A DNA stretch of 64,000 nucleotides from an uncultured delta proteobacterium. GTDB taxonomy: Bacteria; Desulfobacterota; Binatia; UBA9968. Numbering within the stretch: position 1 is the first letter of the stretch; each line of letters begins with the position of its first letter. Both the position numbers and the translations under genes were made by a program. Shown here piece after piece: positions 7,854 to 51,560 of the stretch. Below the pieces are notes generated by a model. It was not told where the DNA came from and made no database searches. It was given only the letters and a program-made list of their open reading frames with translations. Location of the stretch: the NCBI GenBank assembly GCA_963737905.1, contig CAVTUQ010000019.1:1-64000 (forward strand). Reading direction: 5' to 3'.

Positions 7854-8132
7854 ACCGGTGTATCTTCAGTACACATGCAAATTATAGGTTATCCCGCACT
7901 GCCCGGAAAGTTTTTTAAGAGTCGCTCTCGTTCTCTAGGACGATAGAAAGGACGAGGCTGTTTTACACGAATGAAAGCCAATGTGAATGGAGGAGCAGGA
8001 GGGCACGATTGCAAGCGCTAACGGCATTGAGTTATGTTGCCTAAACAAAGGGTAACAGAGAACCAATTTAGGCGGGCGAATAAGAGCCGCGGAATTGCTG
8101 AGTGACAGCGAATCTAGGAGGAGAAACAGCGC

Positions 8133-12088: not shown

Positions 12089-12212
12089 GGAACGCTCTCC
12101 TCGCTTGCGCGCAATTGTTTCCCACAATACTCAGACGAGGCGATGAGGGCAAGTTGAATATTCCCGTCAAAAACGGACCGCAATTCGAGTTGAAGTGGAT
12201 AATAGCGTTCGT

Positions 12213-13200
12213 TTAGTGGCTGTAAAGCTCCTTGACGAAGCCGCTATCCTCCAGCTCTTTGAGCGGGCGTGTTATCGTAGAAATCCTTTGGGTCGGCCGA
12301 CGCGGCCTTGGGGTTGTCCGAAAGCGACAGAACCGTGCGGATCGCCTCCTCGGGCATGTAAGGAACCTTTAAAAACAGATCGGCAAGGCTTTGATAGGAG
12401 TCGTCGATCATCTCGGGATCTTTGGTTCCGAGATATTCGGCGAGCGCTTTTTTCGCGACTTCGGGTTGCTCGTGAATGATTTTTATAGACGCGAGGTAAG
12501 CTTTGAGAAAACCTTTGATTGCTTCCGGGTTTTGCCGGATGAGAGATTTCCGAGTCGCGATGGCATTGTGCGGGTACGGATATTTGAACGAGGCGATGTC
12601 CACCAGTTTTTTGAAACCAAGACGCTTAGCCATCACGGTTGTCGGCGATGAGAACACTCCGCCCGCAATGATTCCCTTTTGTAAGGAGGCTAGGAGGTCT
12701 CCTTGCCGCGCAAAATAGAGAATCTTCACGTCTTGCCCGTAACGAATCCCGTACCGCTTAAAGAGCGCGATGGCAGCATGGTCGGAGGAAGCGCCTTTAG
12801 TAATGACTCCGAAAACCTTACCTCGGAGATCATTGATGTCCTTGATCTCGGGCTTGGCATAGACAGTAAATCCATAGGTTGAGAGCCCGATACCGACATA
12901 AGTGAGGTCGGCTCCGCCAAGGATGGCGCCGACGACCGCCCCGCCCGTGAGCGCTATGGCCACGTCACCGGCGATGAGCGAGTGGGTGAGGATAGCTCCA
13001 CCCGCGATGTAAATCGGCTTGACATCGATGCCGTACTGTTGGTCGAGATGGTTTTTGGCGATCACCCAGAGCGGCATCGAACCGCCGCTCAACTGGGGAT
13101 ATCCGACCGTGATGGGGGCCGCGGCGCTATTTTGGGGGCTTAGCATCGGCAACAACAGCAGGGCTAGCGCACAAACAAGCGACAGGCGCTTTGATTTCAT
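12213..13200 (-). CDS. NMT1/SsuA-type ABC substrate-binding protein (frameshift near 12265)
   Basis: Signal peptide; DLRGKVFG; family C-terminus LKELEDSGFVKELY read in the adjacent frame to TAA at 12213. Confidence 0.85.
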
Positions 13201-13335: not shown

Positions 13336-15019
13336 TCACTCTCGCGTCAAAGGTCGATATTTAATCCTATGCGGTTGCTCCACGGCGGCGCCGAGCCGGC
13401 TCTTGCGATCCGTCTCGTATTCCGAATAGTTGCCGTCAAACCAAATAACCTTGCTATCGCCTTCGAAGGCGAGGATATGAGTCGCGATGCGGTCAAGAAA
13501 CCACCGATCGTGAGAGATTACCACCGCGCAACCGGCAAAATTCTCCAGCGCTTCCTCCAGAGCGCGCAGTGTGTTCACATCCAGGTCGTTGGTCGGTTCG
13601 TCGAGCAGCAAAACGTTGGCGCCTTCTTTCAGCATCTTCGCCAGATGAACACGATTCCGTTCGCCGCCCGATAGCGTGCCGACCTTCTTTTGCTGGTCCG
13701 TTCCGGAGAAATTGAACCGGGCGACGTAAGCGCGGGAGTTCACTTCGCGAGCGCCGATTTTCAGTAAGTCAGTCCCGCCGCTGATCTCTTCCCAGATCGA
13801 TTTTTTGGGGTCGAGGGTGCGGCTCTGATCGACGTATCCCAGGGCAACCGTCTCGCCGATGCGAATCTTGCCGCTATCGGGTTGTTCTTGACCGATGATC
13901 ATGCGAAACAACGTCGTCTTGCCGGCGCCGTTGGGGCCGATGACGCCGACGATACCACCGGGAGGGAGCTTGAACGTCATGTCGTCCACTAAAACTTTAT
14001 CACCGTAGGCTTTGCCGACTCCTTCCGCTTCGATAACGACGTTGCCCAAGGCGCGGCCCCGGCGGAATGGGGATCTCCAGATCTTCGCGCCGTTTCTGCG
14101 CTTCCTGATCGAGCAATGCTTCATAAGCCGTGATGCGCGCTTTGCCCTTGGCGCGGCGCGCCTTCGGCGACATCCGAATCCATTCGAGCTCGCGTTCAAG
14201 CGTCTTTTGCCGCTCGCTTTCGGATTTTTCCTGGTGGCGCAAGCGCTCTTGCTTCTGTTCCAGCCAAGACGTGTAGTTGCCTTTGAACGGAATGCCCTGG
14301 CCACGATCCAGTTCCAGAATCCAACCGGCCACGTTGTCGAGAAAATATCGGTCATGCGTAACGGCGATTACCGTTCCCGGATAACTCTGCAGGTGACGCT
14401 CGAGCCACGCTACTGATTCGGCATCCAGGTGATTCGTCGGCTCGTCGAGCAGCAGAATGTCGGGCTTTTGCAAGAGCAGCCGGCAGAGAGCAACCCGGCG
14501 ACGTTCGCCGCCGGACAAGATCTTTACCGGCGTGTCTGGCGGCGGACAGCGGAGCGCGTCCATGGCCATCTCCAGCCGCGCATCGAGATCCCAGGCCTCC
14601 TGATGGTCCAGCTTCTCCTGCACTTGGCCCTGACGTTCGAGTAGCTTGTTCATGTCGTCGTCAGACATCGGTTCTGCAAACTTGGCGTTGATCTCTTCAA
14701 ACTCTTTCAGCAGCTTGACAGTCTCTTGTACGGCTTCTTCGACGACTTCGCGCACAGTTCGTGAATCGTCGATCAACGGTTCCTGTTCCAAATAACCTAC
14801 CGTATAACCCGGTGATAGCACGGCCTCGCCGTTGATCTCTTTGTCCACGCCCGCCATGATGCGCAAGAGCGACGACTTGCCCGAGCCGTTGAGACCGATC
14901 ACGCCGATCTTGGCGCCATAGAAGTAGGAAAGGTAGATGTCTTTGAGGACGGCCTTCTTGTCGTAGTACTTACCGACGCCGACCATAGAATAGATAACTT
15001 TGTTTGGTTCAGTGCTCAT
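13336..15019 (-). CDS. ettA: Energy-dependent translational throttle protein EttA (ABC-F), split by one extra G near 14047
   Basis: [38 protein letters not shown]; second cassette [21 protein letters not shown]; C-terminal PHRIKYRPL. Confidence 0.93.
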
Positions 15020-15179
15020 GATTGAATCGTGTTATCAAATTTGAAGCTTGCGTAGCAGATCTTCGATTAAGCTCCCTCACGTGCCCATGTGAAAATTATA
15101 CACGGACACGGGCCTGAAATCGAAAGGAGAAAGGCAAAGGGGGCGACCAGCCGGTCTCCACCCGCCGCAACGGCGCTCA

Positions 15180-17955: not shown

Positions 17956-18978
17956 TTATTCTCGTCCCTGCTGCGTGGCGATGGCTTCGACGTGTTTGGC
18001 CAAGTCTTCTTCGAACTGTGAGAAACTTTCCCAATACAACACTGGAACGTCATTAACATCGAAGGGGCGGTTGCTCCCTTTCTTCGCTACAACAATGATA
18101 TCTTTGTTCATTCCACTTGCGAGTCCTAGTTCCCAATAAACGTTGGATTTTTCCTCACTAATATCCGCTATGATAAACGCGCTCTGACGGATTCCTCGCA
18201 TGATCTCTGGTATGATGCGCTTGCGATCACTCGATTCGTCAACTCGCCTTGCGTTATAACCGAATCGTTGGCAGGCTTTTTGAATCGCGATGCGAAGATC
18301 TTTGTACTCCGGGGAATCTTTAAACGACATGATTACGAATACTTCACGACTGGTGACCATCCGTTCCGCAAGATTGATCACCGTTGTCGCCAACTGATTC
18401 CAATCCGTTGAAAGAGACTTGAGCACTGCTTCGTAATCTTTTTTTGAGACGTTTCCCGGATAAAGGGTTTCCACCCGTTTGGCCTCTTCCAAACAAATGT
18501 CCTTGGCTGCGCCCCCAAACAGAGAGATGGGAAGTAAGGGCTTGCGCTCGATGCGCGCCCAGTTTGCCGCACGATAAGTTCCGCGGAACCCGCCGATAAG
18601 AATCACGGCATCTGCATATCGAATAATTTCCGGCGCGTTAAGATCCTTACCTCCCAACTCCCAGTCAACCAATTCAGACTGCAAAATCGCGCCATGTTTG
18701 TGGATGGGTTCGGTTCCCTGGTTAACATAGCTGACAATACGTCGATGGAGTACTTCGTTGGTTGCATTCTGACTGAGCAAATATTGTTCGGCGCCATCTG
18801 CGACACTGGAATCCAGATCAGTTCGACAGCCCGTAAGAAGCACGTGCCCTTGACGCATCATCTCTTCTCCGAGAGTACGCGCGAAACTCATGATTTCCGC
18901 CGGAGACCGGGCGAGGGCTTTTTCATCCTTTTTATCCAGACCGCCCGCGACCAAAATGGTCAGTTTTCTCCCGGCCAT
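17956..18978 (-). CDS. SLOG-superfamily domain fused to a nucleoside 2-deoxyribosyltransferase/TIR-like domain
   Basis: N-terminal LLTGC..D..VADGA and ADAVILIGGFRGT...KP.LP...GGAA (SLOG); C-terminal VFVIMSF...RVD...IIADI...NVYWELG.A.G..K. Confidence 0.75.
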   Translation of the reverse strand: MAGRKLTILVAGGLDKKDEKALARSPAEIMSFARTLGEEMMRQGHVLLTGCRTDLDSSVADGAEQYLLSQNATNEVLHRRIVSYVNQGTEPIHKHGAILQSELVDWELGGKDLNAPEIIRYADAVILIGGFRGTYRAANWARIERKPLLPISLFGGAAKDICLEEAKRVETLYPGNVSKKDYEAVLKSLSTDWNQLATTVINLAERMVTSREVFVIMSFKDSPEYKDLRIAIQKACQRFGYNARRVDESSDRKRIIPEIMRGIRQSAFIIADISEEKSNVYWELGLASGMNKDIIVVAKKGSNRPFDVNDVPVLYWESFSQFEEDLAKHVEAIATQQGRE

Positions 18979-19077
18979 GGCGTCCTCCCTAAAAATTTTA
19001 TCTTAGTGTCCTTAGCGTTAGCTGCCGGCCTTGTGTTACCGAATACCTACGGAGGGGAATTGCCCGCTTTGATTCAC

Positions 19078-21887: not shown

Positions 21888-22757
21888 TACGCTACCTCCT
21901 TGCCGGTTGCCGCTTGCCAGCTCTGTTGTAGACCTCGGCGGGTCAGTGCTTCGACGATCCAGCGGCGGTTTTCCGCGCTGCTGCGTTGATCGCTGATCGG
22001 GCTCGATTCCGATGCCGCCATTTGTGCGGCCTCTTTGGCCAGTGCTGCGGTCAGTGATTTGCCGCGCAGCATCGATTCGGTCTTCGTCGCGCGAATCGGC
22101 GTCGGCGCGACCGCGCCCAGACCGATGCGGACATCTTGTAAACTATTCTTTGCGGTATCGGGTGTAACTAAGACGGCGACGCCGACCATGGCGATATCCA
22201 TGGCGCCGCGCACCGCGTGTTTGAGATACACGCCGCGGCTACCGTTCGGCGGATAAGGGATCTCGATCTCCGTAAGCAATCCTTTGTAACCCAGAGCGGT
22301 CTTGCCCGGCCCCTGGAAAAAGGATTTGAATGGCTCGACCTTTCTCTCCGTCGGCAAAAGCAAGCTTGCCCTTCGCCTCTAACACCAGCAGCGGCGCCAG
22401 TGTTTCTCCCGAAGGCGAGGCCCGGCAGATGTTGCCGCCGACCGTAGCCGTGTTGCGGATCTGCAGCGACGCGAACTGATGGCAGGATTCCCAAAACACC
22501 GGCAGCCGCTCGCGCACGATCGAGTTCGTCTCAATCTCGCGGATCGTCACCAGCGATCCGACGCGCAGACTGCCGCCGTTTTCCTGGATTGCGCCCAGGC
22601 CGGGGATTTTCTTGATATTCACCAAGCAACCCGGTTCCTCCTTATACTTTATGTCGACCATCACATCGGTGCCGCCGGCGATCACCTTGGCCTGCTCGCC
22701 ATATTTCGCCAGTAGTGACAGAGCTTCGCTTAACGTCTTCGGCTCAAAATAATCCAT
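21887..22757 (-). CDS. FAD-binding medium subunit (CoxM/CutM-like), frameshift near 22345
   Basis: IAGGTD, QIRNTATVGGNIC in ORF 22239..22772; RIGLGAVAPTP, SPISDQRSS in ORF 21887..22363. Confidence 0.9.
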
Positions 22758-22779
22758 AAATGTTCTCCTCAATGAAAGC

Positions 22780-22862
22780 TGGAGTAATGGAATGGTGGAA
22801 CAATGGAAGCAATGTATCTAGACCCAGACCCGCTATTCCAACATTCCAATGTTCCAATAACT
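22780..22862. repeat. Short-unit (~8-nt) tandem array followed by its inverted copy
   Basis: TGGAGTAA TGGAATGG TGGAACAA TGGAAGCA ... TATTCCAA CATTCCAA TGTTCCAA. Confidence 0.7.
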
Positions 22863-27526: not shown

Positions 27527-27729
27527 CGGGAAAAATCGGCTGGGTCAAGCAAACTTGCCGTAGGAGATTGAGTTCTACGGGAATAAGATTCGGGACGAAT
27601 CTAAAGTGATGCAAGAAGTGAAGACGCAACGCCATTTACACATTCGAACGGGTGGGCGGGAGTCAGTTGTTGGGGTTTCTTCATTGTGATAGGCAGCGCA
27701 GTACCATCAAAAAGAGAGGAGGATCCAAT

Positions 27730-28155
27730 ATGCTAAAGGAATTCAAAGAATTCATAATGCGAGGCAATGTAATCGACTTAGCCGTGGCTGTCGTGATCGG
27801 TGCGGCGTTTGGGAAGATCGTTACATCTTTTGTCGAGGACATTCTGATGCCACCGATTGGGTTGGCGCTCGGTGGCGTGGATTTTTCTAATTTGTTTATC
27901 AATCTCTCCGGGAAAGACTATCCCAGCATCGCGGCAGCCAAGGCGGCGGGGGCGCCAACTTTTAATTACGGTATCTTCCTTAACACCATTCTCAACTTCT
28001 TGATCATCGCGTTCGCGATTTTCCTGATCATCAAACAAATGAACCGCTTTCAAAAACCGGCGCCTGCACTCGTAACCAAAGATTGCCCCCATTGTCTCTC
28101 CGCCATTCCCATCAAGGCCACACGCTGCCCGCATTGCACGTCCGAATTAAAATAG
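27730..28155 (+). CDS. mscL: Large-conductance mechanosensitive channel with C-terminal double-CxxC extension
   Basis: [33 protein letters not shown]; NYG.FL..ILNFLII; tail CPHC..CPHC. Confidence 0.95.
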
Positions 28156-28214
28156 CTCGCGCTCGGGTGACAGAATGGGGACTTGTTGTATTCGGCAATG
28201 AGAAGAAAGAGAGC

Positions 28215-29246
28215 ATGCCCTTGAATATCAAGATGTTTCGGAGAAGCTGTGCTGCACTTAGTGGTTTTCTGCTAGTGTTGGTCCTAGTCTGCGACATCGT
28301 TCTGGCTCAGGGAAAAAGCGATCTCATCCCCGTCATCGAGGGTATTTCATCGCCCGACTTTGGCTATCTTACCTCCTATCTGGCGCGCGCGAGGGGGTTT
28401 TTTGAAAACGAGGGACTAGATTTAAAGATCGTCATCATGCGGTCCAGTGTGTCTGTGCCAGCCCTGGTGACGGGAGAAGTGCAGTTTGCTGTTCACGGTT
28501 CCGCCATGACCGCGGCGCTTAAAGGGGCCCCGCTGAAAGCCGTTTTCTTTACCTATAATACGTCTACGATGCAATTCATGGTTCGGCCGGAAATTCAGAA
28601 ACCTGAAGATCTTAGGGGGAAGGTCGTCGCGATCTCCAGCCCCGGCGGATCTCAGGACCAGGCCACCCGGCTGATTCTCAAGAAACTCGGCTTGGATCCG
28701 GCTCGCGACGTGAAACTCCTTGCAGTCGGGAGCGCAAAGGCAAGGGTGATCGGCATGGAAACCGGGCAGATCGCCGGCTCAGCGAACAATCTCGACATCG
28801 CCGCAGAGCTGGTAAAGAAAGGTTATCGTATCCTGGCTAACTCGTCTGAGGTCTACCCTGTGCCCTGGGCCGGCTTGGCGGCCAATGATCGGTTGCTGCG
28901 GACAAATCCTGCGCTCGTGAAAAAGTGGCTCCGGGGTCAGGTGAAAGCGTTGCTCTTTATCCGTGAGCACCCCGACGAGGCGGCTCAAGTGGCGGCGAAA
29001 GAGTTGAACCTAAATTACGAAGTCGCGCGTGAAGCGATAGGGCAGGCGATCGATTTCATAAACCCGAAGGATCCGGGAGGGTTTACGGAAAACGGCATGC
29101 GCTCGCTCATCGAATATAGCGTCGAGCGCGTCGGCATCGATCCCAGGAAAGTGAAGATTACCGACGTAGCCGACGTGACGCTCTTGAGAGAGGTACAGAA
29201 AGAGCTGGGCATTCAGTGCCGCGGCGGTTATCTCTGTCCTCCATAG
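28215..29246 (+). CDS. NMT1/SsuA-type ABC substrate-binding protein
   Basis: Signal peptide; GFFENEGLD, DLRGKVVAIS; start uncertain. Confidence 0.85.
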   Translation: MPLNIKMFRRSCAALSGFLLVLVLVCDIVLAQGKSDLIPVIEGISSPDFGYLTSYLARARGFFENEGLDLKIVIMRSSVSVPALVTGEVQFAVHGSAMTAALKGAPLKAVFFTYNTSTMQFMVRPEIQKPEDLRGKVVAISSPGGSQDQATRLILKKLGLDPARDVKLLAVGSAKARVIGMETGQIAGSANNLDIAAELVKKGYRILANSSEVYPVPWAGLAANDRLLRTNPALVKKWLRGQVKALLFIREHPDEAAQVAAKELNLNYEVAREAIGQAIDFINPKDPGGFTENGMRSLIEYSVERVGIDPRKVKITDVADVTLLREVQKELGIQCRGGYLCPP

Positions 29247-29532
29247 CAGTCAAATGATGCCGGCCTGGGATACGCCAAATCAATAAATTCCGCACATCCA
29301 ACACGCTTCAATGGACAAATTCGGGTTTTTTCGTTAATTCAGCCTTCGAACCACTCTTCACGCCGCGACCACAGCCAGCAGTTTAGCAAAATGGTCCACT
29401 GCCATTTGGTGACCGCAGCTGAGGCAGCGCTCACGTTACGCCGATCAGCTTGACATGTTGACCCCGTCTTGAAGTATCTTGTCGTCGGGTAGCAAGCGGC
29501 TCAATTCAAAGCCACAGAAAAAGGAGGATACG

Positions 29533-31014
29533 ATGAAACGCCTATATGCAGTCGCCAGGGCGACTAGCCATCGTTTTTTGTTTGTACGGGATAGGATCGT
29601 CGGCGGAACTTTCCACAGAGAATCAAGCCAAGCTGCTGAAGAGCGTCGATTCATATGCTCCGCGAATGTCGGAGGTGGCGCTAAAAATTTGGTCGAAGCC
29701 GGAGCTCGGCTATCAAGAGACCGGGACCTCAGCATTACTCCAGGACGAGCTAAAGAAAGCCGGCTTCAAAATCGAAGCGGGTGTAGCCGGCATTCCGACC
29801 GCGTTTGTCGCGCGCGCTGGGACGAACGACGGTCCGGTGATCGCCATCCTTGCCGAGATCGACGCTTTGCCCGGCATGTCGCAAGCCGCGGTACCGGAAC
29901 GCAAGCCGATTCCGGAGCAGATCGCGGGCCATGCCTGCGGGCATCATTTATTCGGCTCGGGCTCGGTTGCCGCGGCCATCGCCGTCAAAAACTGGCTTCA
30001 AGAGACTGGGATGAAGGGCCAGATCCGTGTCTATGGCACGCCTGCAGAAGAAGGTGGCGGTGGCAAGGTGTATATGGTTCGCGCCGGACTGTTCAAAGAC
30101 GTGGATGTGACATTGTATTGGCATCCCGGCGATGCAAACAATGCCTCCCAGGACCGTAATCTGGCGAACACCAGCGCAAAGTTCCGTTTCCATGGCCAAG
30201 CCTCCCACGCGGCCGTTGCTCCCGATCGTGGCCGTTCCGCGCTCGATGCTGTGGAGGCGATGAACTTCATGGTCAATTATATGCGCGAGCATGTTCCTCA
30301 GGACGTGCGCATTCATTACGTGATCACCAACGGCGGCGCGGCGCCGAACATCGTTCCTGAATTTGCCGAATCCTATTACTACGTTCGCCACCCCGATCCA
30401 CGCGTCGTTGCCGACGTGTTCGAACGCGTCAAGAAAGCCGCCGAAGGCGCTGCACTCGGCACAGGGACGACTTTTGATTACGAGGTCATCAACGGGGTTT
30501 ACAGCATCCTGCCCAATGACGTGCTCGGCCGTGTCATGGACGCCAACCTTCGTCGCGTCGGCCCTGCCGCGTGGACGGCGGAGGAGATGGCTTTCGCGGA
30601 GAAGCTTCAGAAGACTCTGCCTGGGAAGAACCTGCCGGCGCTGGCAAGCGCAAAGGAGGTCATAGATATCGGTTCAATGGACAGAAATATTCGTCCACCG
30701 ATTCGGGGGATGTGAGCTGGGTTACGCCACTGGCGACGCTGAATACGGCGACCTGGGTTCCCGGAACATCGGCCCATACCTGGCAAGCCACGGCAGCCGG
30801 CGGTATGAGCATCGGACTCAAGGGAACCGTTGTCGCGGCCAAGACACTCGCGCTCACGGTAGCGCAGCTATATGCGAGTCCCGATGTGATCCAGTCCGCC
30901 AAGAATGAGTTCGATAAGAGCCGCGGTCCTGGCTTCGTCTACAAGCCCCTCATCGGCGACCGGCAGCCGCCACTGGATTATCGCAAGGGATCAACTTCGA
31001 CCGGGGCTGAATAA
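29533..31014 (+). CDS. M20 amidohydrolase, p-aminobenzoyl-glutamate hydrolase subunit B (AbgB)-like, with signal peptide (frameshifts near 29560 and 30665)
   Basis: PELGYQE, GHACGHHL, YGTPAEEGGGGK, GRSALDAVE, STD.GDVSW..P, H.WQ; AAGGAGG RBS before ATG 29533. Confidence 0.85.
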
Positions 31015-31558
31015 GCGGCGCACGCGTATATCCAATTTCGAGTTTGCTATTTAGAGCGGCTCCTTGGATTGTTAAGGAACAAGAAAATCAGCGCCAGCGT
31101 CCATCGCCGCGCACCCCCGAGCGGCTCAAGATTCCGCGCGGCTCCTGGAAGCGGAAGGAAAAATCGGCTAGGTCAGGCCACGCTGATCGAAGGTGGACGT
31201 GGAAAAATTCGGTTCCGTGCGGATAAGATTCGGGGCGAATCTGACGGGATGAAGAGGCTGGAGTTGAAACGTAACAGCCCTATTTTTTCGTATGTGTTGA
31301 TTGGGATGGAGGTGAGGCGTCATTCAATTCAATCCTGCCGAGGAATATTGGGCTTACTCCGTTTTTAACTCGACCGCCAAAGGTTGCAAAGGCTATGTTT
31401 GTCGGGTTACGTTTCTGCTATCAGACGCGGTTGTGGAAGTACCAATCTTGCCCTGAGCAGATCTTCCTGTGACCCCTTTAGGCAGAGAGTTTTCGGAGAT
31501 CATTCTCACAGAATAAGCTTCCGCGCGGCAAATCTTCGATACGGAGAACACAAGCCAG

Positions 31559-34500
31559 ATGATCCGACCACTGTCCCGTCGCTTGCGTGTCAGAGACGAC
31601 GGCAGCGGCAAGGGAAGGGAAGTCGAGACCACATTCCCGGAATTCGAGACCGAGGACGCAATCATTCTCCTCGGCGATCCCGGAATGGGAAAGACGACCT
31701 TTTTTAGGGAGGCGTCCAATGCAAAATACATTACGGTCCGAAATTTCCTAGTTGGGCCGCATGCCATGCGGAAACGAGGCGCTTTTCCTTGACGCCCTCG
31801 ATGAATACAGAACTATTACAGGGGGGCAAGGCGCAAGCGACGAAGTCGCCAAAGAGCTGTGCAAGCTGCGGAAGCCTAAGTTTCGGTTCTCCTGTAGAGC
31901 GGCGGATTGGTTCGGCTCACAGGATCAAGACGTTCTGAGGGCCGCTAGTGCATCGGGCCGGGTCGTAGTACTCGAACTCTGTCCGCTCTCACATGATGAA
32001 ATTCTGACTGCTGTGGAGCCGATAGTTCCCGACCCAGTCGTATTTCTAGATGAAGCAGAATCGGCGGGGCTCGGAAAGTTACTTAGTAACCCTCAAACTC
32101 TTGAGTTTATAGCGCGTGCTTGGGGAAGCGACAAGAAGCCTAAAAACAAATTCGAGGCATATGAGATAGGAATCTCTGAACTACTTAAGGAGACGAATGA
32201 TAAACATGCGCGCAGCGTGCTTAGGTCCGGTAGCGAATTACGCAAAGCTGCAAGCGCCGTCGCGTCGATACTGCTCCTTTCGAACTCCGCCGGTATTGCG
32301 CGGACAGAGCCGGCAAGCGGCAATGACTATACCATTCTCTCGGTTGTACCATATCCGAACAGAGATGCAATTGATGCTGTTTTGAGACGGCGGCTTTTTA
32401 TTTCCCCGGAGAGCGGATCGGTTCGAACTGATTCATCGTACCGTTGCTGAGTTCTTGGCCGCAGAGGATTTATTCGATCGGATCCAGAAGGGTCTTCCAA
32501 TTGATCGGGTAATGGCGCTGATATGCGGGAGTCGACGGGAGGCCCGTCTCCTCGCTTCGAGGTCTTTTCGCCTGGTTGATGTGCAGGCTTCGCCAGCGCG
32601 CCGAGGATTACGTCGAGCGTGACCCCTATGGAGTTGCTACATATGGCGATGCCAGCGTATTGCCGCCAAGCGGCCAAAGGGCAATCTGGGCTGGACTTCG
32701 GAGGCTTCGTGATCCGTGGTTTCTCGGGAACGAAGACGACCGCGGCTCGTTCCGTGGCCTCGCCAACAAAAATACGGCCAAAATGGTTACTGAAATCTTC
32801 CAAGATCCGGCAAGCGGAGTTCATCTGCGAATCGCCGCGCTCGAAGCAGCCGCCAATACCAGAGAAGACATTGGATTGAAAGCCACTTTTCGAGACATGA
32901 CGCTAGCGAAACACGAAAGCGAATGGCTTAGATCAAAAGCATTAAACGCCTTCGCGGAATCGGTCAAGAACGATTGGGCGCTACTAGAGGCTCTCGATCG
33001 CGAACTTGCCCAAGCGGCCGATGATGCGACCGCCTCTGAAGTACGGGTTAAATTGCTCTGCCTGACGCCAGGATGTGGTATCTTGCCCTTGCGGTTGCTC
33101 TCGATTCTGGAGCAGGCTGCCTCTGCAAAAAATGAAAGGCATGTTCTTGGCGGTTTCCGTTCACTGATTGATCTACCGTCCGATTCCGATTTGACTGCGA
33201 TTCTTGACGGCGACATTCTCGAGGTATTAACGCCGGAGAAGAAGAAATACTATTTTGAGCTCCGCTCAATTTTCGATAAATGGTTGAAGCGGCGTCTAGA
33301 CGGCCCCGCACCGACCGCGGCAATACAGCTAGCCAGTTGGATCAAAAGCATACAGGTCGGGCGGGACCGATATCCCGAGCTGACACTGGCATCTTTAAAA
33401 GCACGATTTGAACGGGAGCCGTCGCTCTTTGAAGAAGTGTTCGAAGAGCTCGCCAGTAAGCCAGGCAAGGAACGGTCGTTCTTGTTTTTTGTCTTTCACG
33501 ATGTGCGGCGACTATTGCCGGCGACAATATGGCCTATTCCTCAATGCGAATTCTTCTTGGCCCGCGCCGAGAAGGAAAACGATCCCGAACGTGGCGCCGC
33601 ATTCTTCCAGATGTATCTGCATTGCTTCCCAAGCGAGGGAGCATCTGTCGCACTAGCTGAGGCGGGTTTCAATTTGTTGGATCGTCGACGTGATCTGGCG
33701 GAGACACTCGGAGATTGGAACATTTGTAAAATCGAAGAATCGCAAAAGGATCAGTCGGAGAGACTTCAAAAAGAGAGTCGAGAACGCTCCGAGAATCGCG
33801 CGCAAATCATTGCGTACTTAACACCGCGCCTCACTACCATTCGAGAGGGAAGCGAGGAAAAGGTCCGACTGTGGGCGGTCCGGTTCTATTTAGGGTTTGT
33901 TGAGGGGACTGAAGATGTGTCCGAGCCGCGGGAGCGCCTAGTTAAATTCACGACCGAAGAGATCGCAGATGCTCTTATTGAGGGAATCATCCGGTACGCG
34001 CAGAATCCAGCCGTCGCGCAAAAAGGGAACGGTGAATTCCAACTATGATTTATTGAGTCTGTCGGTCTTTCTACGATTCACTGAAGACATGACCGTACCC
34101 GAGGACGCGCTGCCGAATTGTATCGCGGCGGTAGTCACCTCCTACTTAGGTGATACTTTGCCGGACTATGATGGCAAGCTGTCCAAATGGCTGCTTCGAC
34201 AAGCGTCCGAAAAACCAACCGTTGTGAAATCTGTTCTAAAGAGGATGTGGGTTTCTGACGGGACGAGTAAGAAAAGGCTACTGCCGGGCTTTGATGTATT
34301 GAGCCGTGATCCCGGCTCTCAACAATTCCTCGCTTCGTTGTCAGCCGATGTTCTCAAGACGGGGATCAATGAAGATCACGGAGCAGTTGCCGAACTGGTA
34401 TCCGTCCTTCTGCGTCATGATCGGGAGGAAGCCCTCGCCATCGGAGAGAGTGAGCTCATACGAAACGAATTGTCGCCGGAAGTGCGAGCCATCTGGATCA

Positions 34501-35509
34501 CTATCCTTTTTGTGATCGATCCGAGTCGGTATTTGCAGGCTTGGAGAACCTACATGTCGCGACCAGATGCGGCTCTATGGGAAGCCATTGATGTCGTTAG
34601 AGACGGTCGCGACGGAAGGAAAAATGGCATTAGCCTCACGTCAGAACAACGCACGGAAGTCATAGCGTCGGTCGGGGCGCGGTTTCCTGAACGTCGGACA
34701 CCCTTCCGACGACTGGATCGATAACCGAGACCCATGGGACGCGTCGGAATTTGTCGGCAAACAAATCAAGCTGTTAGCCACCGACATCTCGCCAACCACT
34801 GATGCTCAACTTGAACGGTTGGAAATTAGTGACGCCTTGTTAAGTTACCGCGAATTGATCAGGCACCAAAGGGCGCAGCATCAAAAGCGGCGGCGTGATT
34901 CTAGCTTTTTGTTTGCATCGCCCGAGCAAGTCGCCCATGCCATTTTAAATTGCGCTCCTGCTACTTCGGGTGATTTTCTGGCTTTCATAGTCGATCACTT
35001 GAACGCCCTATCGCGAGAATTGACCGGAACGCAAAGAGAGAGATACCGCGCCTACTGGAATGAGAGGGGCGTACCTGCAAGCCGAAACGCGAGGAAGAAT
35101 GCTCGGGGTTTTTAGCAGACGATTTACAGAATAGAATTGATGCTCATGGCCTTATAGTTACGGTAGAACACCACATGATTGACAACAAGGAATGCGATAT
35201 AGTCGCGTCGCAGGGAACCGATCGGCTATTGCCGATAGAGGTGAAGCATCACTACAACCCGAAACTTTGGACGGCATGGCAAACCCAGCTCGATCGCCTA
35301 TACACAGAGACGCAAAGGCGGGCAGACTCGGCATCTATCTCGTTCTCTGGTCGGGCGAGGCCAAGAATAGGAAGATGCCGAAGCTTCCGAACGGCATCAA
35401 ACGTCCGACTAGCGCGGCTGAACTTAAGAACGCGATTGAATCACTCGTCCCGGAAGCGGATCGGCACCGGCTTAAAGTGGTCGTCGTGGATATTTCGGAG
35501 CGGACCTGA
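31559..35509 (+). CDS. NACHT/STAND NTPase (NLR-like) with C-terminal PD-(D/E)xK nuclease-like domain, about 1300 aa, broken by many frameshifts
   Basis: Walker A LLGDPGMGKT, Walker B LFLDALDE, SCRAADW, NPQTL, winged-helix IHRTVAEFLAA; C-terminal ECDIV...PIEVK...QLDRLY...GIYLVLW across consecutive + strand ORFs. Confidence 0.72.
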
Positions 35510-35775
35510 TGCCTGCTAACTTCGTTCGAGCTGACAAATGGAAAAAAAAGCGGCAATGGCGGTGAATGTGAATTTCCACTAAATGACGATGGGTGGACGA
35601 CTTCCACTCTGGGCGGTATTCTCTAATTGAACTGAATTCTCCTACAGTCAAACCCCGCGCGCAAACGGGTATGCCAGAAATGTGTACAGAAGCACATTGG
35701 TCAGCGGTTCAGAAAAAATTGATAAGGGGAGTTAAAGGGTCAGGCGTCTCTCCTCTCCCTAATTCAACCTATCTC

Positions 35776-35960
35776 TTCATACCACTCTTCGTGCTGTGAC
35801 CAGCGCTGGCAGCTTAAGCAGATCGTCCAGCGCCATTGGTGACCGGCAGCCAGGGCAGCGCCCGCGGGTCTTAAACATTCCACGCCGTGCCGCCGCCTTC
35901 GAAGAATTACTCCGGGTATCGCCGCAATAATGGGGGCTCGATGCTTTCCGACGCGATACG
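35776..35960 (-). pseudogene. Decayed paralogous copy of the 3' half of the Cys-rich gene at 39288..39644
   Basis: TCATACCACTCTTC..CCAGCGCTGGCAGC..CCAGCGCCATTGGTG..CCCGCGGGTC..TTCCACGCCGT..CCTTCGAAGAA..ACTCCGGGTA aligns with 39301-39475 but with indels. Confidence 0.75.
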
Positions 35961-36100
35961 CCTACCCTTTGTTCGCTTCGGGCTAATCCACAATATTTCT
36001 TTTTGATCTTGAGTCTACGTGGGTTCTTCCTGGGTTGGCGAATCCAGTCCCTGCGTAGTATCTTGAGAGAGATCTCTTTGATCGGGTGATTTGTACTCTT

Positions 36101-36361
36101 ATGCCGACGATCAGCGTTTTCTATGGCATCGTGATTCAGATGTTTTGGCGGGATCATGGGCCGCCGCACTTCCATGCTCTGTACGCCGAGCACGAAGCAT
36201 TGATTGACTTGGTAGACTTGCGTGACATTCGCGGCTCTTTGCCCGAGCGAGCAATGAAGTTAGTATTGGAGTGGGCGACCGAACATCGCGATGAATTGAT
36301 GGAGAATTGGAGCCTGTGCAGTCAACTGAAAACACCGAAGGCAATCGAACCGCTGAAGTAG
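36101..36361 (+). CDS. DUF4160 family protein (HicA-like putative toxin)
   Basis: MPTISVFYGIVIQMFWRDHGPPHFHA.Y...W...H..EL..NW. Confidence 0.88.
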   Translation: MPTISVFYGIVIQMFWRDHGPPHFHALYAEHEALIDLVDLRDIRGSLPERAMKLVLEWATEHRDELMENWSLCSQLKTPKAIEPLK

Positions 36362-36651
36362 AACCGGCGATATGGCATACCGTTCCGTGGCGTGTGACGT
36401 CTGTGACCGCTTTGCCGGATTCTCGGCTTCATGTGACTTTTGTGGATGGGGTGGTCGGGGATGTCGATATGCGCTCGTTTCTGAGCGATCCAAAGATCGA
36501 CAGCACCATTTTCGAGTCGCTGCGGGATCAAGCAGTCTTTGCTCAAGCCCGCGTCGTGCTGGGAGCGGTTCAGTGGCCGAACGGCGCCGATCTGGCCCCG
36601 GATGCGATGTATGATGCCATTCGTGAATATAGCGTTTGGGTTTTGAATTGA
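36307..36651 (+). CDS. DUF2442 family protein (putative antitoxin)
   Basis: L.V.F.DG..G.VD...F..L.D...F......GAV.WPNGADLAPDAMY; overlaps the DUF4160 gene. Confidence 0.85.
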   Translation: MEPVQSTENTEGNRTAEVEPAIWHTVPWRVTSVTALPDSRLHVTFVDGVVGDVDMRSFLSDPKIDSTIFESLRDQAVFAQARVVLGAVQWPNGADLAPDAMYDAIREYSVWVLN

Positions 36652-36860
36652 GACGCCAGGAAGGAAAAGTCACGGAGGCGCAGGCCAAACGAATCGCGGA
36701 TGAGGCCAAGCACTACGCGCGCAAAGCTCGGCGCAGATAGCCTGTGCTCCGAGCGGTCCTTGATGCCAATGTAGTGATCAGTACCGTCAGGACGAATCCT
36801 GACAAGCCCATCTTCTTTCTCTCAAAGCTTACGAAAGTATTCGCATTATAACTCCTCGAG
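36652..36860 (+). pseudogene. Remnant antitoxin C-terminus plus truncated PIN-domain toxin N-terminus
   Basis: ..VTEAQAKRIADEAKHYARKARRR* then GTG 36744 MLRAVLDANVVIS (PIN-type x-VLDxNV motif) that degenerates. Confidence 0.55.
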
Positions 36861-37030
36861 TATTCCTGGGTTTGCTCTAGTCACGGACGGAGAGCGACGC
36901 ATGGATCTTTCGGCGGCGCCATGATAATCAGTTGGCGGCCGGCGCGCTCAGGAGTTGACGCGAATGGCGTCATTTTATTTGTTGTCAGATGCTGGGACGT
37001 TCGGGATTCAAGCGAAAGGCGGTTATTCAA

Positions 37031-38091
37031 ATGCGTTTTGGCATGCAGTTCTATCCGTTGCCCGCCGCCCCACAGACGGCGGCTTACGCCAGGCGGGCGA
37101 TGTCGCAACATCCGTTCGAACGGCTCTGGGTTCCCGATCATCTGACTCACGAGAATCCGTTCGTGACCCTGGCGGCGATTCTCGCCGAAACGCGCGCCAA
37201 TGTGGGCACGTCGGTGACCAACCCCGTGTGCCGGACGCCGGTGGATCTTGCCTCCAGCTTCAGTGCCCTCGCCCATCTGGCGGGCGAGCAGGGCGTCACG
37301 GCGGGAATCGGCGCCGGCTCCGCGTCGTCCAACATGATTCGCAAAGAGCGCCGGATCGGCATGCTGCGCGAGATGATCTTGTTTCTCCGAGAAATGTTTA
37401 GCGGGCGGCGGGTCAGGTTAGGAAAGTTTCCCGACCTGACCGGCTTCTTTCGCCTCGACTCGACGCCGAGGCGTTCCTGCGCATGCCGCCGGAGCGATCG
37501 CCGGAAATTTTTGTCGCGGCCGCCGGGCCGCAGAGCCTAAGAATCGCCGGTGAACTCGGCGACGGTTTGATCATCAGCAACCTCTCCTTTCCCTCGGCAT
37601 TGATTCGTCAAGGCGCTCTGGCGGATGCTCTGGCCAATCTCCCAGTGCGTCGCGCGCATTTCACCAAAGTGCTCCACCTGCATGTCTCGGTGGCGCGCGA
37701 CGGCGCGGCGGCGCGGCGCTGCTCCCGGCGCATGGCCGTCAACGGCCTGATCGGCGGACATCTACTGGGCAAGAGGATGGTCGAGCTGCCGGTGCCGGCC
37801 GCGACGCGGGCCGTCATTCAGGAGGGTCACCGGCAGGGCAAGACCGTTGAAGAACTCGACCCGCTGATCAGCGAGCGCGTGATCGAAGAGAGCGGCATCG
37901 TCGTCGCGGGCACGCCCGCGGAGTGCCTTGCCCAACTCGACGAAGTGCTGCGCTTGGCCAAACCCTATCGCTTCGACATCGTGGACATGGCCTCGCCCCT
38001 CGGCCCCGATTGGAACGAGGCCATCGACATCATCTGCCAGGAGATTCTGCCCGAGCTCGAGCGCCGTTCGAGCGCTTATGTCGAAAATTGA
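37031..38091 (+). CDS. LLM class (F420/flavin-dependent) oxidoreductase (frameshift near 37465)
   Basis: LWVPDH, VGTSVTNP..RTP, IFVAAAGPQSLRIAGELGDG, VAGTPAEC. Confidence 0.82.
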
Positions 38092-46396: not shown

Positions 46397-46453
46397 CGTG
46401 AAAAATGAAATTCCGAAGCCCGGTCGTTCAAAATTGCGACGAATGGGTACGAA

Positions 46454-48892
46454 ATGGCTGACTACGAATCCGGCCGGGAAGCACTCCAAAAGCTCGCCGA
46501 TGTAGAACTCGGCGATTCTCAGCAGATTGAGTCTGCTCGTAATGAGGCCAGTACTAGATATCACATCATCGACCTTCTCGTGACTGATGTGCTTTGCTGG
46601 CACAAGTCGGCCGTCAAGGTGGAGCGTCATGAGGACTCCGGCTACTCAGACTACGAACTTGGTTCCCCATCGTCACTTCTCCTAGAAGCGAAAAAAGAGG
46701 GCGTTCACTTTTCGCTGCCTGCGGGATGGGATAAGGAAATCGCTAGGCTCGAGACGCTATTTTCCGCTTCCGAAGACACGAAAAAGGCAGTTCAGCAGGC
46801 TATCGACTACGCCGTTCAGCGAGGTATACCATATGCAGCCATCTGCAATGGTCATCAGCTTATCGCCTTTCTTGCAAGCCGCCAGGATGGTACACCGCCT
46901 ATTCGTGGCACCGCGCTTATTTATAAATCTCAGCGTGATATGCTCGCACGTTTTGCTCAATTATGGGATGCTCTATCCCCGCCGGGGCTGGCAATGGGAG
47001 GCCTATCTCGGATTCTTGGTGCTGCTCCTCTCAGCGCACCGCCTCAGAAACTCTCAGCCAGTATTGTAAATTATCCAGGCTACAAAAACCGCAATCCAAT
47101 TGCTACGGAGTTGCAGATTCTCGGTGGAATTTTTCTCGAGGATCTGACCCGCGAGCCAGGTTTGGAAGACGACTTCTTGCAGCAGACATACTGTACAAGC
47201 GGTGCGCTTTCCCAATACGCGCTCGTCAGTAAAGAGCTGTTGCAGGCACGGTACGCTAGTGTCTTCGAGAACGATGGTAACGTCTCGGCAAGCCCCGCAG
47301 CAAGTAAGAGAGGCGTTTCGCCAGAATTGACTCAAGACGTAGTTGCTGCAAGTCTCAGCCGCCGACCAATCCTATTGGTGGGAGATGTCGGAGCCGGTAA
47401 GTCTATATTCATCCGATATCTGATTAAAGTAGCTGCAAAAGAAGCGCTCGAGCGAGCGTTGGTTCTCTATATCGACTTTGGAACAAAACCGGCCTTGGCG
47501 AGCGACCTTCGGCCATATGTCGTTCAGGAAATTGTACGTCAACTTCGAGATGATTATGAATTGGACGTGTATGAGCGCGACTTCGTCAGAGGGGTCTACC
47601 ATGGAGAATTACTTCGGTTCGAGCGCGGGATCTACGCTGATCTCAAGGACTCCGATCCGCCCACATTTCGTGCGAAGGAAATACAGCGCCTAGAACAACT
47701 CACGAGTGATACTGAACAACACCTCAAAGCATGTCTTACCGACGCCGTACGAGGTCAGCGACGTCAGGTAGTTCTCTTCCTTGATAACGTCGATCAGCGG
47801 CCGGGACAGTTTCAGGAGGAAGTTTTCCTCATTGCTCAGGCTCTCGCAGATCAATGGCCCTTGACAGCCTTCGTGGCACTTCGTCCTGAAACATTTGCCG
47901 AATCACGGGTTAAAGGTTCTCTCACGGCATATCAACCCCGGGTCTTCACCATAGATCCGCCGCGGGTCGATCTAGTGCTCCGACGAAGACTAGCATTCGC
48001 TCTGAAGCAGCTTGCGGAACAAGGCCGGTTGGGCGCCATACTGCAACTGAACGTTCAATCAGACACGCTCAAGCGATATATCAGTATGCTTCTACGAGCC
48101 TTCGAGAATGAGGAATCAATCATTGAGTTTGTTGACAACATGAGCGCAGGTAATATTCGGCGCGCGCTAGACTTCGTCGCGGCGTTCTTTGGTAGCGGGC
48201 ATGTTGACAGCCAGAAGATCCTGAGAGCTGAAGAGAAAGAACCGGGAAGCTATAGGCTGCCATTGCACGAGTTTCTCCGGGCGGTAACGTATGGTGACAA
48301 TGCGCACTATGATCCTTCGAAGTCTCCCATCCTGAACGTCTATGACGTATCCTCTCGCGATGGGAAAGAGCACTTTCTAGTTGGAGTCTTGGTAGCCTTC
48401 ACTGAACGCGCGGGTCAACTCGGTGGCAGCGAAGGCTATGTCATGCGAGACACAGTGTTTCGGTTTGCCCGGAGTCTTGGTTTTCAGCCCTCACAAGTCC
48501 AACTAGCTTTGAGGAGATGCATTGAGAAAAGACTTCTGGCAACTCCAGCAACCCTGAGCGGGGAGGACTATTCCAGGCTCAGGGTCACAACGGTCGGGGC
48601 GTACACGATTAAGAAGTTGATGTTCTTCTTTACCTACCTAGATGCCGTAGTAGTGGATACACCGATTCTGGATCCTAGTGTGCGAGCCAAGATACGTGAT
48701 GTTGGGCTGACAGACGAGCGGCTCGTCAGAGCGGAAATTTTTTTGGATTACCTAGATGAGCAGTGGGTAGCCCTTCGAGAGACGGCGGCAGAAATCCTGG
48801 ATTGGTCGAATCGGGCTGGTCGTGCACGCGAAGAGATTCGCTGGATCAAAGAACGACTTCGACGCATAGCAGTCAGCACAGGTACCCTGTAA
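46454..48892 (+). CDS. HsdR-N-like restriction endonuclease domain fused to a P-loop (STAND/AAA-like) NTPase
   Basis: NEASTR..IID.L...LCW, YSDY...LLEAKK, ICNG (type I REase N-domain); Walker A LVGDVGAGKS, Walker B VVLFLDNVD, GNIRRAL. Confidence 0.8.
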   Translation: MADYESGREALQKLADVELGDSQQIESARNEASTRYHIIDLLVTDVLCWHKSAVKVERHEDSGYSDYELGSPSSLLLEAKKEGVHFSLPAGWDKEIARLETLFSASEDTKKAVQQAIDYAVQRGIPYAAICNGHQLIAFLASRQDGTPPIRGTALIYKSQRDMLARFAQLWDALSPPGLAMGGLSRILGAAPLSAPPQKLSASIVNYPGYKNRNPIATELQILGGIFLEDLTREPGLEDDFLQQTYCTSGALSQYALVSKELLQARYASVFENDGNVSASPAASKRGVSPELTQDVVAASLSRRPILLVGDVGAGKSIFIRYLIKVAAKEALERALVLYIDFGTKPALASDLRPYVVQEIVRQLRDDYELDVYERDFVRGVYHGELLRFERGIYADLKDSDPPTFRAKEIQRLEQLTSDTEQHLKACLTDAVRGQRRQVVLFLDNVDQRPGQFQEEVFLIAQALADQWPLTAFVALRPETFAESRVKGSLTAYQPRVFTIDPPRVDLVLRRRLAFALKQLAEQGRLGAILQLNVQSDTLKRYISMLLRAFENEESIIEFVDNMSAGNIRRALDFVAAFFGSGHVDSQKILRAEEKEPGSYRLPLHEFLRAVTYGDNAHYDPSKSPILNVYDVSSRDGKEHFLVGVLVAFTERAGQLGGSEGYVMRDTVFRFARSLGFQPSQVQLALRRCIEKRLLATPATLSGEDYSRLRVTTVGAYTIKKLMFFFTYLDAVVVDTPILDPSVRAKIRDVGLTDERLVRAEIFLDYLDEQWVALRETAAEILDWSNRAGRAREEIRWIKERLRRIAVSTGTL

Positions 48893-50699: not shown

Positions 50700-50922
50700 C
50701 GGGAATTTCGACCTGAGCGATCAACGACTTCGTTTCGACAGGAACGCTTTCGCCGCGCGAGCGCTTCTCTTCGACCCACGCTTCAATCAATTCTTGAGCA
50801 GCAGCAATGGCTCCTTCGATACCCTGGCCGTGCGTGGTCAGGTCGAGAGTTGGAATGTGGGCGTAATAGTAACCCTGAAATTCAGGTTCGTTTATCGGCT
50901 CAAGAAGCACGGAGTAGCGCAT
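50680..50922 (-). CDS. hicB: Short HicB family antitoxin (no DNA-binding domain), upstream of hicA
   Basis: MRYSVLLE...GYY..IP.L...T.G..IE.A...A.E.I..W; GGAGG RBS; overlaps the hicA start. Confidence 0.88.
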
Positions 50923-50995
50923 GATGACCCCTCCAGGAGAGAATTCTATAACAGCCTCGCCCATCAGCACAAGGTTGTCATTGGTCAGAGGCAAA

Positions 50996-51560
50996 GTGTT
51001 CAAAACCCTGATACTCGTAACCTTCATGTTGGGGTTCGTATATTTAGCCGACGCACAGCAGCAGAAGAAAATCCCGCGGATAGCTTTTCTAGGGGCTGCC
51101 TCTGCTACGTCTCGAGCTTCCCGTCTTGATGCATTTCGCCAAGGGTTGTGGGAGCTGGGCTATGTAGAGGGGAAGAACATCATTATTGAGTACCGCCATG
51201 CCGAAGGGAAATTTGAACGGTTGCCCGAACTTTCAGCCGAACTGGCGCATCTCAAGGTGGACATCATCGTCACCCAGGGAAGTCCGGCGGCCGAAGCTGC
51301 CAGGAAAACGACAAGCACAATTCCGATCATCATGGCAACAGGTGGCGATGCCTGTTGGCTCGGGGCTGGTTGCGAGCCTCGCCCGGCCGGGCGGGAACGT
51401 CACCGAATTATCCAGTCTCGTCACAGATCTGGCTGGGAAACGGCTGGAGCTTCTCAAGGAAGTCGCACCCAAGGTCTCCCGCGTCGCCATGACGGCGCAG
51501 CAGATCGGTCTCACGATTCCGCCGAATGTGCTGGTGAGAGCGGATAAAGTAATAAAATGA
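50996..51560 (+). pseudogene. ABC_sub_bind paralogue with a large internal deletion
   Basis: Matches 49124..50119 up to PKVSRVA, then jumps directly to TAQQIGLTIPPNVL.RADKVIK. Confidence 0.8.

Follow-up and report, generated by a model that had tools for sequence, protein, structure and literature searches.

A probable divergent member of the EruA (Erebus)/Avs10 family of NACHT-nuclease antiphage genes, frameshifted as assembled, in an uncultured Binatia bacterium

The gene and its reading frames

The window, the whole stretch of DNA that was analysed, comprises 64,000 nucleotides of contig CAVTUQ010000019.1 (assembly GCA_963737905.1) from an uncultured delta proteobacterium of the Binatia. 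On its + strand, three-frame translation and tblastn reveal an EruA-like gene of about 1,315 codons at 31559..35509, which is broken by seven frameshifts into eight colinear frame segments. The tblastn query was P0004, the closest full-length database relative (1328 amino acids), and the eight segments span its residues 1-1318 with identities per segment of 34-67%. An earlier note, made from the letters of the DNA, had joined the + strand fragments into one gene. The joining holds, with eight colinear tblastn segments and 7/7 pieces ordered on a single profile of 1318 positions, far more than chance would give. The motifs that it quoted are all present in the three-frame translation, which locates GDPGMGKT, LFLDALDE, SCRAADW, NPQTL, IHRTVAEFLAA, ECDIV, PIEVK and QLDRLY. 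The segments, all on the + strand, are as follows.

31559-31759, +, segment 1, frame 2
31776-32420, +, segment 2, frame 0
32413-32532, +, segment 3, frame 1
about 32530-34024, +, segment 4, frame 2
34050-34703, +, segment 5, frame 0
34675-35067, +, segment 6, frame 1
35079-35306, +, segment 7, frame 0
35309-35497, +, segment 8, frame 2, with the stop codon at 35507-35509

The start at 31559 agrees with the starts of intact relatives. When the tblastn high-scoring segment pairs (HSPs) were compared with the frames, no real in-frame nonsense codon was found in the segments used; the only two stops within any HSP (32510 and 32519) lie in an over-extended margin, outside the frame used. All 33 of the conserved residues that were checked are retained in the window copy. 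The GC content of the gene is 0.529 vs 0.552 for the remaining window, a contrast that was considered as a sign of transfer and rejected as too small. A promoter and terminator scan returned no promoter-like sites, and terminator-like sites were at the level of shuffled sequence.

Domain organisation and family assignment

The protein is predicted to open, almost at residue 1, with a NACHT ATPase switch; a long helical sensor that evolves fast follows, and a PD-(D/E)xK domain forms the C terminus. Its parts, with residues in P0004 numbering, are listed here with the evidence for each.

31559..32990, +, NACHT NTPase and helical extension (residue mapping, AlphaFold2 model, Foldseek)
31673-31693, +, Walker A, G39-K45 (residue mapping)
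31791-31805, +, Walker B, D78-E82 (residue mapping)
about 31890-31910, +, SCRAADW block (residue mapping)
32434-32436, +, winged-helix His297 (residue mapping)
32990..35040, +, central sensor-like region (helical where modelled, at both ends)
35040..35509, +, C-terminal PD-(D/E)xK (restriction-endonuclease-like) domain (invariant residues, AlphaFold2 model, VIA-align, Foldseek)
35091, 35166, 35196 and 35238, +, nuclease-type residues E1183, E1208, D1218 and E1232
35244, 35286 and 35301, +, nuclease-type residues K1234, Q1248 and Y1253

Conservation was assessed in an alignment of 50 full-length relatives, chosen by length out of 150 listed. Among these, Walker A residues G39, P41, G42, G44 and K45, Walker B residues D78, L80, D81 and E82, residues C112, R113, D116, W117 and P181, and the winged-helix pair H297-R298 are invariant or nearly so. 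AlphaFold2 modelled residues 1-480 of L016, the intact relative closest to the window gene (from a groundwater metagenome-assembled genome), using 53 aligned loci, with a predicted local distance difference test score (pLDDT) of 87 and a predicted template modelling score of 0.89. Searched with this 480-residue model, Foldseek listed 78 PDB structures at E ≤ 0.001, and every top row is a NACHT module of an animal nucleotide-binding leucine-rich repeat receptor (NLR): NOD2 leads (3.3e-9), followed by NLRP3, NLRP9, NLRC4 and NLRP1. By its predicted fold, the N terminus is an animal-NLR-like NACHT module at the very start of the protein. Because only about 38 residues lie ahead of the Walker A loop, there is no N-terminal effector domain, in agreement with the NLR-like NTPase that the earlier note had described.

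The long helical region that was expected to follow the NTPase is helical where it was modelled, and matches to helical-repeat structures cover residues 1-93 of the C-terminal model described below. It is the least conserved part of the protein, with 34-63% identity to close relatives vs 66-80% for the NTPase and the nuclease tail. For about 32990-34650, the searches returned no named family, and an ESM Atlas look-up with residues 480-1040 of P0004 returned only unnamed 'hypothetical protein' clusters at 0.90-0.91.

In the tail, E1183, E1208, D1218, E1232, K1234, Q1248 and Y1253 are invariant in the 50 relatives and in 23 loci, and all are kept in the window. Further columns that are invariant or nearly so in the 50 relatives are W1170, W1242, G1263 and W1269. 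An AlphaFold2 model of the last 293 residues of L016, built with 23 loci, has a pLDDT of 85.6. Residues 1-133 of this model are helices, and residues of about 143-289 form an alpha-beta-beta-beta-alpha-beta core, with E156 in the first helix, D191 in strand 2, E205-x-K207 in strand 3 and Q221...Y226 in the next helix. In the model, the invariant E, E, D, ExK and Q...Y thus map onto the canonical core of this fold. VIA-align, which is independent of Foldseek, aligned model residues of about 110-293 to restriction-endonuclease-like structures at Z 5.9-7.8. The best matches are Can2 (Z 7.8, root mean square deviation 2.9, 114 residues aligned), PaqCI (7.7), BstYI (7.5), AF1548 (7.0) and BamHI (6.9); others are OkrAI, LlaBIII, BglII, Can1, McrC, EcoRV, HamA and NgoMIV.

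Three results weigh against a nuclease fold. The Z values, at most 7.8, lie in a range that the tool calls common or middling; Foldseek with the C-terminal model gave no PDB match at E ≤ 0.001; and when the C-terminal alignment was searched as a profile against PDB sequences, no row was significant, an unrelated small protein ranking first at E 0.046. The weak Foldseek rows are mostly PD-(D/E)xK nucleases (Cdn1, McrC, Can2, EcoRII, NucS and Hjc). A homodimer prediction for two copies of model residues 96-293 scored 0.01 vs a mark of 0.42, a value that speaks neither for nor against a dimer. The fold is assigned because the matches are consistent and the catalytic-type residues are invariant, and not from the Z values alone. 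With moderate confidence, the tail is a restriction-endonuclease-like (PD-(D/E)xK) domain and a predicted nuclease, as the earlier note had proposed from a PD-(D/E)xK-like site followed by QxxxY.

The earlier note had set a match to an already named system as one of the outcomes that would overturn its reading, and such a match was found. The NCBIfam profile NF058535, "NACHT domain-containing antiphage protein EruA" (1318 positions, curated equivalog cut-off 1000 bits), is matched end to end and in order by 7/7 pieces submitted; the search used seven of the eight pieces. The pieces match profile positions 2-62, 69-283, 341-816, 862-1058, 1103-1184, 1181-1259 and 1257-1318; their E-values lie between 2.1e-07 and 3.8e-50, and their scores sum to 615 bits. 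They cover positions 2-283 and 341-1318, and in the P0004 tblastn the frame-1 piece fills the stretch between. The sensor is homologous to EruA throughout, with positions 341-1058 matched.

Relatives give the same result. A library-wide phmmer search with the 490-residue piece returned 194 proteins at E ≤ 0.001, of which the full-length ones have 1304-1439 residues. All 11 intact database relatives match NF058535 end to end (676-984 bits), as do all 35 of the intact open reading frames (ORFs) scanned from loci (791-1167 bits), and HyoA (NF058534) is a distant second in both sets. In the closest intact relatives, the match runs over positions 8-1318. On HyoA, one window piece reaches 41.7 bits and the relatives 100-208 bits, below its 1200-bit cut-off. 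The window gene has the N-terminal NACHT with intact Walker A, Walker B and winged-helix His that is expected of an NF058535 protein, and the C-terminal PD-(D/E)xK-type domain with E, D, ExK and QxxxY, although the fold matches of the latter are middling. An uninterrupted reading frame, which is also expected, is lacking in the window copy, with seven frameshifts as assembled.

Pfam and PADLOC v2.0.0 gave only sub-threshold P-loop matches on the eight pieces, and Pfam gave no match at E ≤ 0.001 on three intact relatives. Neither PADLOC v2.0.0 (2023) nor the Pfam copy used has a model for the EruA family, which is why the gene looked undescribed.

For a closer placement, NCBIfam scores were obtained for 35 of the 58 full-length ORFs recovered from the 80 loci kept. 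Sixteen of them reach at least 1000 bits on NF058535, with a Pseudomonas locus at 1167, and the other 19 form an unbroken series from 791 to 998 bits. Those closest to the window gene, 12 in number (L014-L019, L021, L022, L024, L026-L028), score 791-887 bits, with E-values of about 1e-237 to 1e-266; none of the 12 passes the cut-off, vs 16 of the 23 others. In a FastTree of the sensor region (midpoint-rooted, support values left aside), the 490-residue window piece sits within this low-scoring group. L016 is 63% identical to the window gene over the sensor piece; the value is 75% for the NTPase and 69-76% for the C-terminal pieces.

Several observations weigh against placing the gene in the EruA family. 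All 12 scanned members of the subclade lie under the equivalog cut-off, their group is set off by a long branch from the clade of members with at least 1000 bits, and the sensor is only about 22-27% identical to that of high-scoring EruA proteins. The window is not a dense defence island, as 24 ORFs scanned with PADLOC gave matches only to a SLOG-TIR-like protein and a methyltransferase. Finally, it is from the names that we infer EruA to be the gene of the Erebus system and HyoA that of Hypnos, and no defence paper using the gene names EruA/HyoA (or Eru/Hyo) was found in the literature. On the sequence comparisons, the window gene is a divergent member of a sister subclade of EruA, and it is not an equivalog by NCBI's rule because the subclade scores 791-887 bits vs the 1000-bit cut-off. 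We put the probability that the locus is a divergent member of the EruA (Erebus)/Avs10 family, encoding a single-gene NLR-like antiphage protein, at about 85%. The locus belongs to a known family and is not a new kind of system.

Frameshifts, distribution and neighbourhood

The frame steps are, in order, +1, +1, +1, +1, +1, -1 and -1. They are listed with the lengths found in metagenome contigs (X1, X2, X3 and X5 are handles of the runs).

31760..31776, +, frameshift 1 (+1), placed by HSP ends; spanning metagenome contigs carry one gap
32413..32420, +, frameshift 2 (+1), placed by HSP ends; spanning contigs carry one or two gaps
32522..32535, +, frameshift 3 (+1), placed by HSP ends; spanning contigs carry one or two gaps
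34024..34050, +, frameshift 4 (+1), beside an A5 run at 34020-34024; the X5 contig omits one base at 34019
34675..34703, +, frameshift 5 (+1); contigs of X1, X3 and X5 omit one base at 34689
35067..35079, +, frameshift 6 (-1 or +2); the X5 contig omits 6+3+2 bases at 35066-35077, and the X1 and X2 contigs are without these
35306..35309, +, frameshift 7 (-1); an additional C follows 35306 in the X2 and X5 contigs

Soil contigs that are 90-99% identical to the gene (4 runs, 3 studies) differ from it by length at sites 4-7, among the indels listed, and 21 of the 39 in-gene substitutions listed fall at third codon positions. The X1 soil run holds 7 gene-like contigs at ≥99% identity, 15 at 95-99% and 14 at 90-95%. 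The soil runs therefore hold several alleles of the gene, and a mixed-strain consensus is a plausible cause of the frameshifts. None of the public sequencing runs contains half or more of the sampled words of the locus, the best share being 0.22. At least five other window genes are split by single frameshifts, in a survey of 43 of the 91 stop-to-stop ORFs of at least 150 residues that were picked as likely genes. The split genes, all from this ORF survey, are as follows.

13339-15031, -, ABC-F ATPase
21890-22817, -, CoxM-like (flavo)protein
29546-31014, +, M20 peptidase
36989-38091, +, luciferase-like oxygenase
50918-51544, +, ABC substrate-binding fragment

That ordinary genes are split here while rpoB and rpoC are intact on another contig suggests consensus indel errors on this contig. 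We lean slightly towards consensus errors in a strain-heterogeneous accessory region as the source of the frameshifts. The same data also weigh against such errors: since rpoB, rpoC and four window ORFs of 763-1109 residues are intact, seven shifts in 3.95 kb amount to more than 10 times the window background. Homopolymers of at least four bases occur at three of the seven sites vs 1.8 expected (P = 0.26); an association with homopolymers was tried as an argument for sequencing error and dropped, since this is the level of chance.

The alternative is that all seven frameshifts are real and have inactivated an EruA-like gene in this lineage, leaving a dead remnant, for example because the receptor was costly or autoimmune. 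We regard this as a serious contender at a little under even odds. It would account for the density of shifts amid intact large genes and for sites that show no homopolymer enrichment, and the indels are private to the window sequence because the close soil-metagenome relatives are without them at sites 4-7. Gene decay in bacteria, however, is deletion-biased, and five of the seven steps are +1. Beside seven neutral indels, substitutions that create stops would be expected, but there are no nonsense codons and every checked conserved residue is kept. The splitting of neighbouring metabolic genes also fits a consensus problem on the contig.

A search of 24 other genomes from the same taxonomic family, two of the same genus included, did not find the EruA-like gene in any. 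Relatives that are about 33% identical occur in a different genus within the order (8 of 11 genomes), where the five best loci (L003-L007, in genomes G026, G028, G030, G038 and G039) have intact frames of 1353-1614 residues. Some genomes of that genus hold a second, partial copy. A scan of one genome per species gave at least 599 candidate stretches, at least 517 of them encoding a relative, in many phyla, and 14 plasmid records carry the family.

In the same-genus genome G002 (contig C40, L096), an NMT1-type binding-protein gene and a luciferase-like gene, 85% and 81% identical to those flanking the window gene at 27.5 kb and 37.0 kb, are only about 1 kb apart. Because the same two genes are 9.5 kb apart in the window (27527-37015), the EruA-like gene lies within a variable, inserted stretch. 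The roughly 8.5 kb that are extra in the window hold MscL, a substrate-binding protein, the M20 peptidase, the EruA-like gene and a DUF4160/DUF2442 pair. Comparison of the flanking DNA gave usable matches only in G002; set against G002, the region is variable, with no clean empty site.

Among the 12 closest loci, 6 have PADLOC defence matches within 6 kb. The neighbours vary: they include a KAP NTPase, a Bro-N protein, Mrr, a type II restriction-modification pair, an integrase, ArdC, Toprim, ParE and a SocA-type antitoxin. In these 12 loci, the EruA-like gene is a single-gene system without a fixed partner. In some of them it is adjoined by a tyrosine integrase, an ArdC-type anti-restriction/metallopeptidase and a Toprim/DUF7146 primase-like gene (L027 6712-7791, L024 6484-7647, L026 6234-7439), and from the integrase, ArdC and Toprim neighbours it follows that the subclade travels on integrative or conjugative elements. 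L019 carries a DUF4143/AAA_14 ATPase directly upstream of the EruA-like gene (6757-7938, +; PADLOC PDC-S01, E 7e-103) and a ParE toxin downstream (12116-12409, -); the DUF4143 ATPase is a neighbour in one of the 12 loci. One neighbour gene matches NA-iREase1, a Pfam family of inactive restriction-endonuclease domains linked to NACHT proteins.

In the window, the earlier note had placed toxin-antitoxin genes next to the EruA-like gene, and a toxin-antitoxin-like pair is found at 36086-36651, 0.6 kb downstream.

36086..36361, +, DUF4160 protein, DhiT-like putative toxin (Pfam PF13711, 75.8 bits, above cut-off)
36307..36651, +, DUF2442 protein, DhiA-like putative antitoxin (Pfam PF10387, 48 bits, above cut-off)

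On the NCBIfam profiles, the match to toxin_DhiT has E 3e-21 and 75.8 bits, below the 100-bit cut-off, and that to DhiA has E 0.038 and 14.4 bits, below the 200-bit cut-off. Judged from these scores, the pair is of the general DhiT/DhiA type, and its members are not equivalogs. Since no such pair lies beside the gene in any of the 12 closest loci (49 neighbour ORFs scanned), the pairing in the window looks incidental.

Two further window proteins may be related to defence or regulation. A protein of 348 residues, SLOG/STALD-like towards its N terminus and TIR-like towards its C terminus, is encoded at 17959-19002 (-), 12.5 kb from the EruA-like gene; it matches the PADLOC 'Effector TIR' model (E 2.9e-17), with weak matches to ThsA-STALD and ThsB-TIR and 27.2 bits on Pfam STALD, and is possibly a stand-alone defence or signalling protein. 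An ORF of 827 residues at 46409-48889 (+) has no PADLOC match and resembles the AAA_16/AAA_22 P-loop families only weakly, at E about 1e-6 and under their cut-offs. It may encode another large ATPase of the STAND (signal transduction ATPases with numerous domains) type or a regulatory one.

Proposed mechanism and comparison with known systems

The Erebus system was reportedly described by van den Berg et al. in Cell Host Microbe in 2024 (32:1427). In the 2026 Nature paper PMC13581612 and its preprint PMC12803255, "Avs10 (Erebus/Hypnos/bNACHT64)" is described as sensing phage major capsid proteins. PMC13581612 also models the Avs10 sensor on the A-domain interface of the capsid protein, finds the effector domain to be required for cell death, and references the names Erebus, Hypnos and bNACHT64 to Kibby 2023 and van den Berg 2024. 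Another paper describes Hypnos as inflammasome-like.

By homology with Avs10, the sensor of the EruA-like protein would wrap around a phage protein soon after its synthesis, and the HK97-fold major capsid protein is the likeliest candidate. Binding would free the NACHT module from an ADP-bound, autoinhibited state, and the protein would presumably oligomerise. The clustered C-terminal nuclease domains would then cut their probable substrate, DNA, so that the infected cell would be killed or arrested before phage release. That the subclade still senses a capsid protein, oligomerises and acts on DNA would follow from this homology. A search of the genome to which the window belongs (87% complete) found no HK97-type capsid gene (PF05065).

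A different trigger has to be weighed against this scheme, in which the family and the effector are the same but the sensor of the subclade responds to some phage protein that is not the major capsid protein. The trigger could differ because the sensor, the most diverged part of the protein, is only about 22-27% identical to that of high-scoring EruA proteins vs 34-63% within the subclade. The separate clade fits such a shift, and a March 2026 preprint still calls the mechanism of Erebus unclear. The homology of the sensor over its whole length, on the other hand, speaks against a different trigger, and we consider one unlikely. A broader departure is less probable still. Here the gene would belong to a distinct sister subfamily of EruA, mostly of Desulfobacterota, Nitrospirota and soil lineages, with a sensor maybe retargeted off the capsid; or the seven private frameshifts would be real and reflect a very recent, cost-driven shutdown of a receptor that is intact in co-occurring strains.

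The earlier note had concluded that this is a single-gene antiphage sensor-nuclease of a poorly described type. The architecture and the likely role stand, but the novelty does not, as the gene matches EruA end to end and Avs10 is in print. An undescribed type apart from the named systems could draw on the missing Pfam and PADLOC matches and on a separate clade below the equivalog cut-off. We consider it very improbable, since the subclade matches the EruA profile over its whole length, shares its length, domain order and invariant catalytic residues with proteins that pass the cut-off, and joins them in a continuous range of scores; at the level of the family, these comparisons already refute it. 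The order with the NTPase first and the nuclease last, which the earlier note had called inverted, is also as described but not unusual: because the gene matches EruA end to end, this order is the standard of the family.

Hardly any weight can be given to a STAND protein outside defence, for instance a regulator with an inactive nuclease-like C-terminal domain: the window copy does lie among metabolic genes outside any defence island, and inactive restriction-endonuclease domains associated with NACHT proteins exist (NA-iREase1), but the catalytic-type residues are all invariant across 50 relatives, the family has a scattered, mobile distribution and frequently adjoins genes of defence or of mobile elements, and NCBIfam curates it as antiphage.

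As a divergent EruA/Avs10-type protein, the predicted product can be compared with several known systems. EruA itself has about 1,320 residues, the same domain order, an end-to-end profile match and a single gene without a fixed partner, and its Walker A, Walker B, winged-helix His and E/D/ExK/QxxxY residues are identical invariants. The window subclade differs from it in its scores of 791-887 bits (cut-off 1000), its position as a sister clade and its sensor identity of about 22-27%, and the window copy is frameshifted. HyoA is likewise a NACHT antiphage protein of the same overall plan and the second-best profile, and its matches can span most of the length; in contrast to EruA, it scores 100-208 bits vs a 1200-bit cut-off, and its profile is longer (1430 positions).

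Avs1-4, Avs7 and most bNACHT proteins share with the window gene a STAND/NACHT switch and a repeat-type sensor that binds a phage protein. Their cell-killing effector is often a PD-(D/E)xK nuclease, such as Cap4 or Mrr. In these proteins, the effector is N-terminal and the sensor C-terminal, whereas the window gene has the NTPase first and the nuclease last. The animal NLRs NOD2, NLRP3 and NLRC4 share the NACHT fold (Foldseek E 3e-9 to 1e-5, probability 1.00), but at 11-14% identity, and they have LRR (leucine-rich repeat) sensors and CARD or PYD signalling domains and no nuclease. Can2/Card1, Can1, McrC, BstYI, BamHI, BglII, PaqCI and HamA resemble the window tail in the restriction-endonuclease-like core, D...ExK included, at Z 5.9-7.8 over 105-149 residues. 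They have no detectable sequence relationship to the window tail, so the likeness is one of fold only.

For annotation, the locus is to be labelled an EruA/Erebus-like (Avs10-type) NACHT-nuclease antiphage gene, frameshifted in the assembly. It adds one soil lineage to an already widespread and mobile family and little beyond annotation. The layout with the NTPase first and the nuclease last looks inverted only next to Avs1-4, and the family is easily missed, given that neither PADLOC v2.0.0 nor the Pfam copy has a model for it. A coherent subclade just under the equivalog cut-off would be a reasonable test of the reach of capsid sensing by Avs10.

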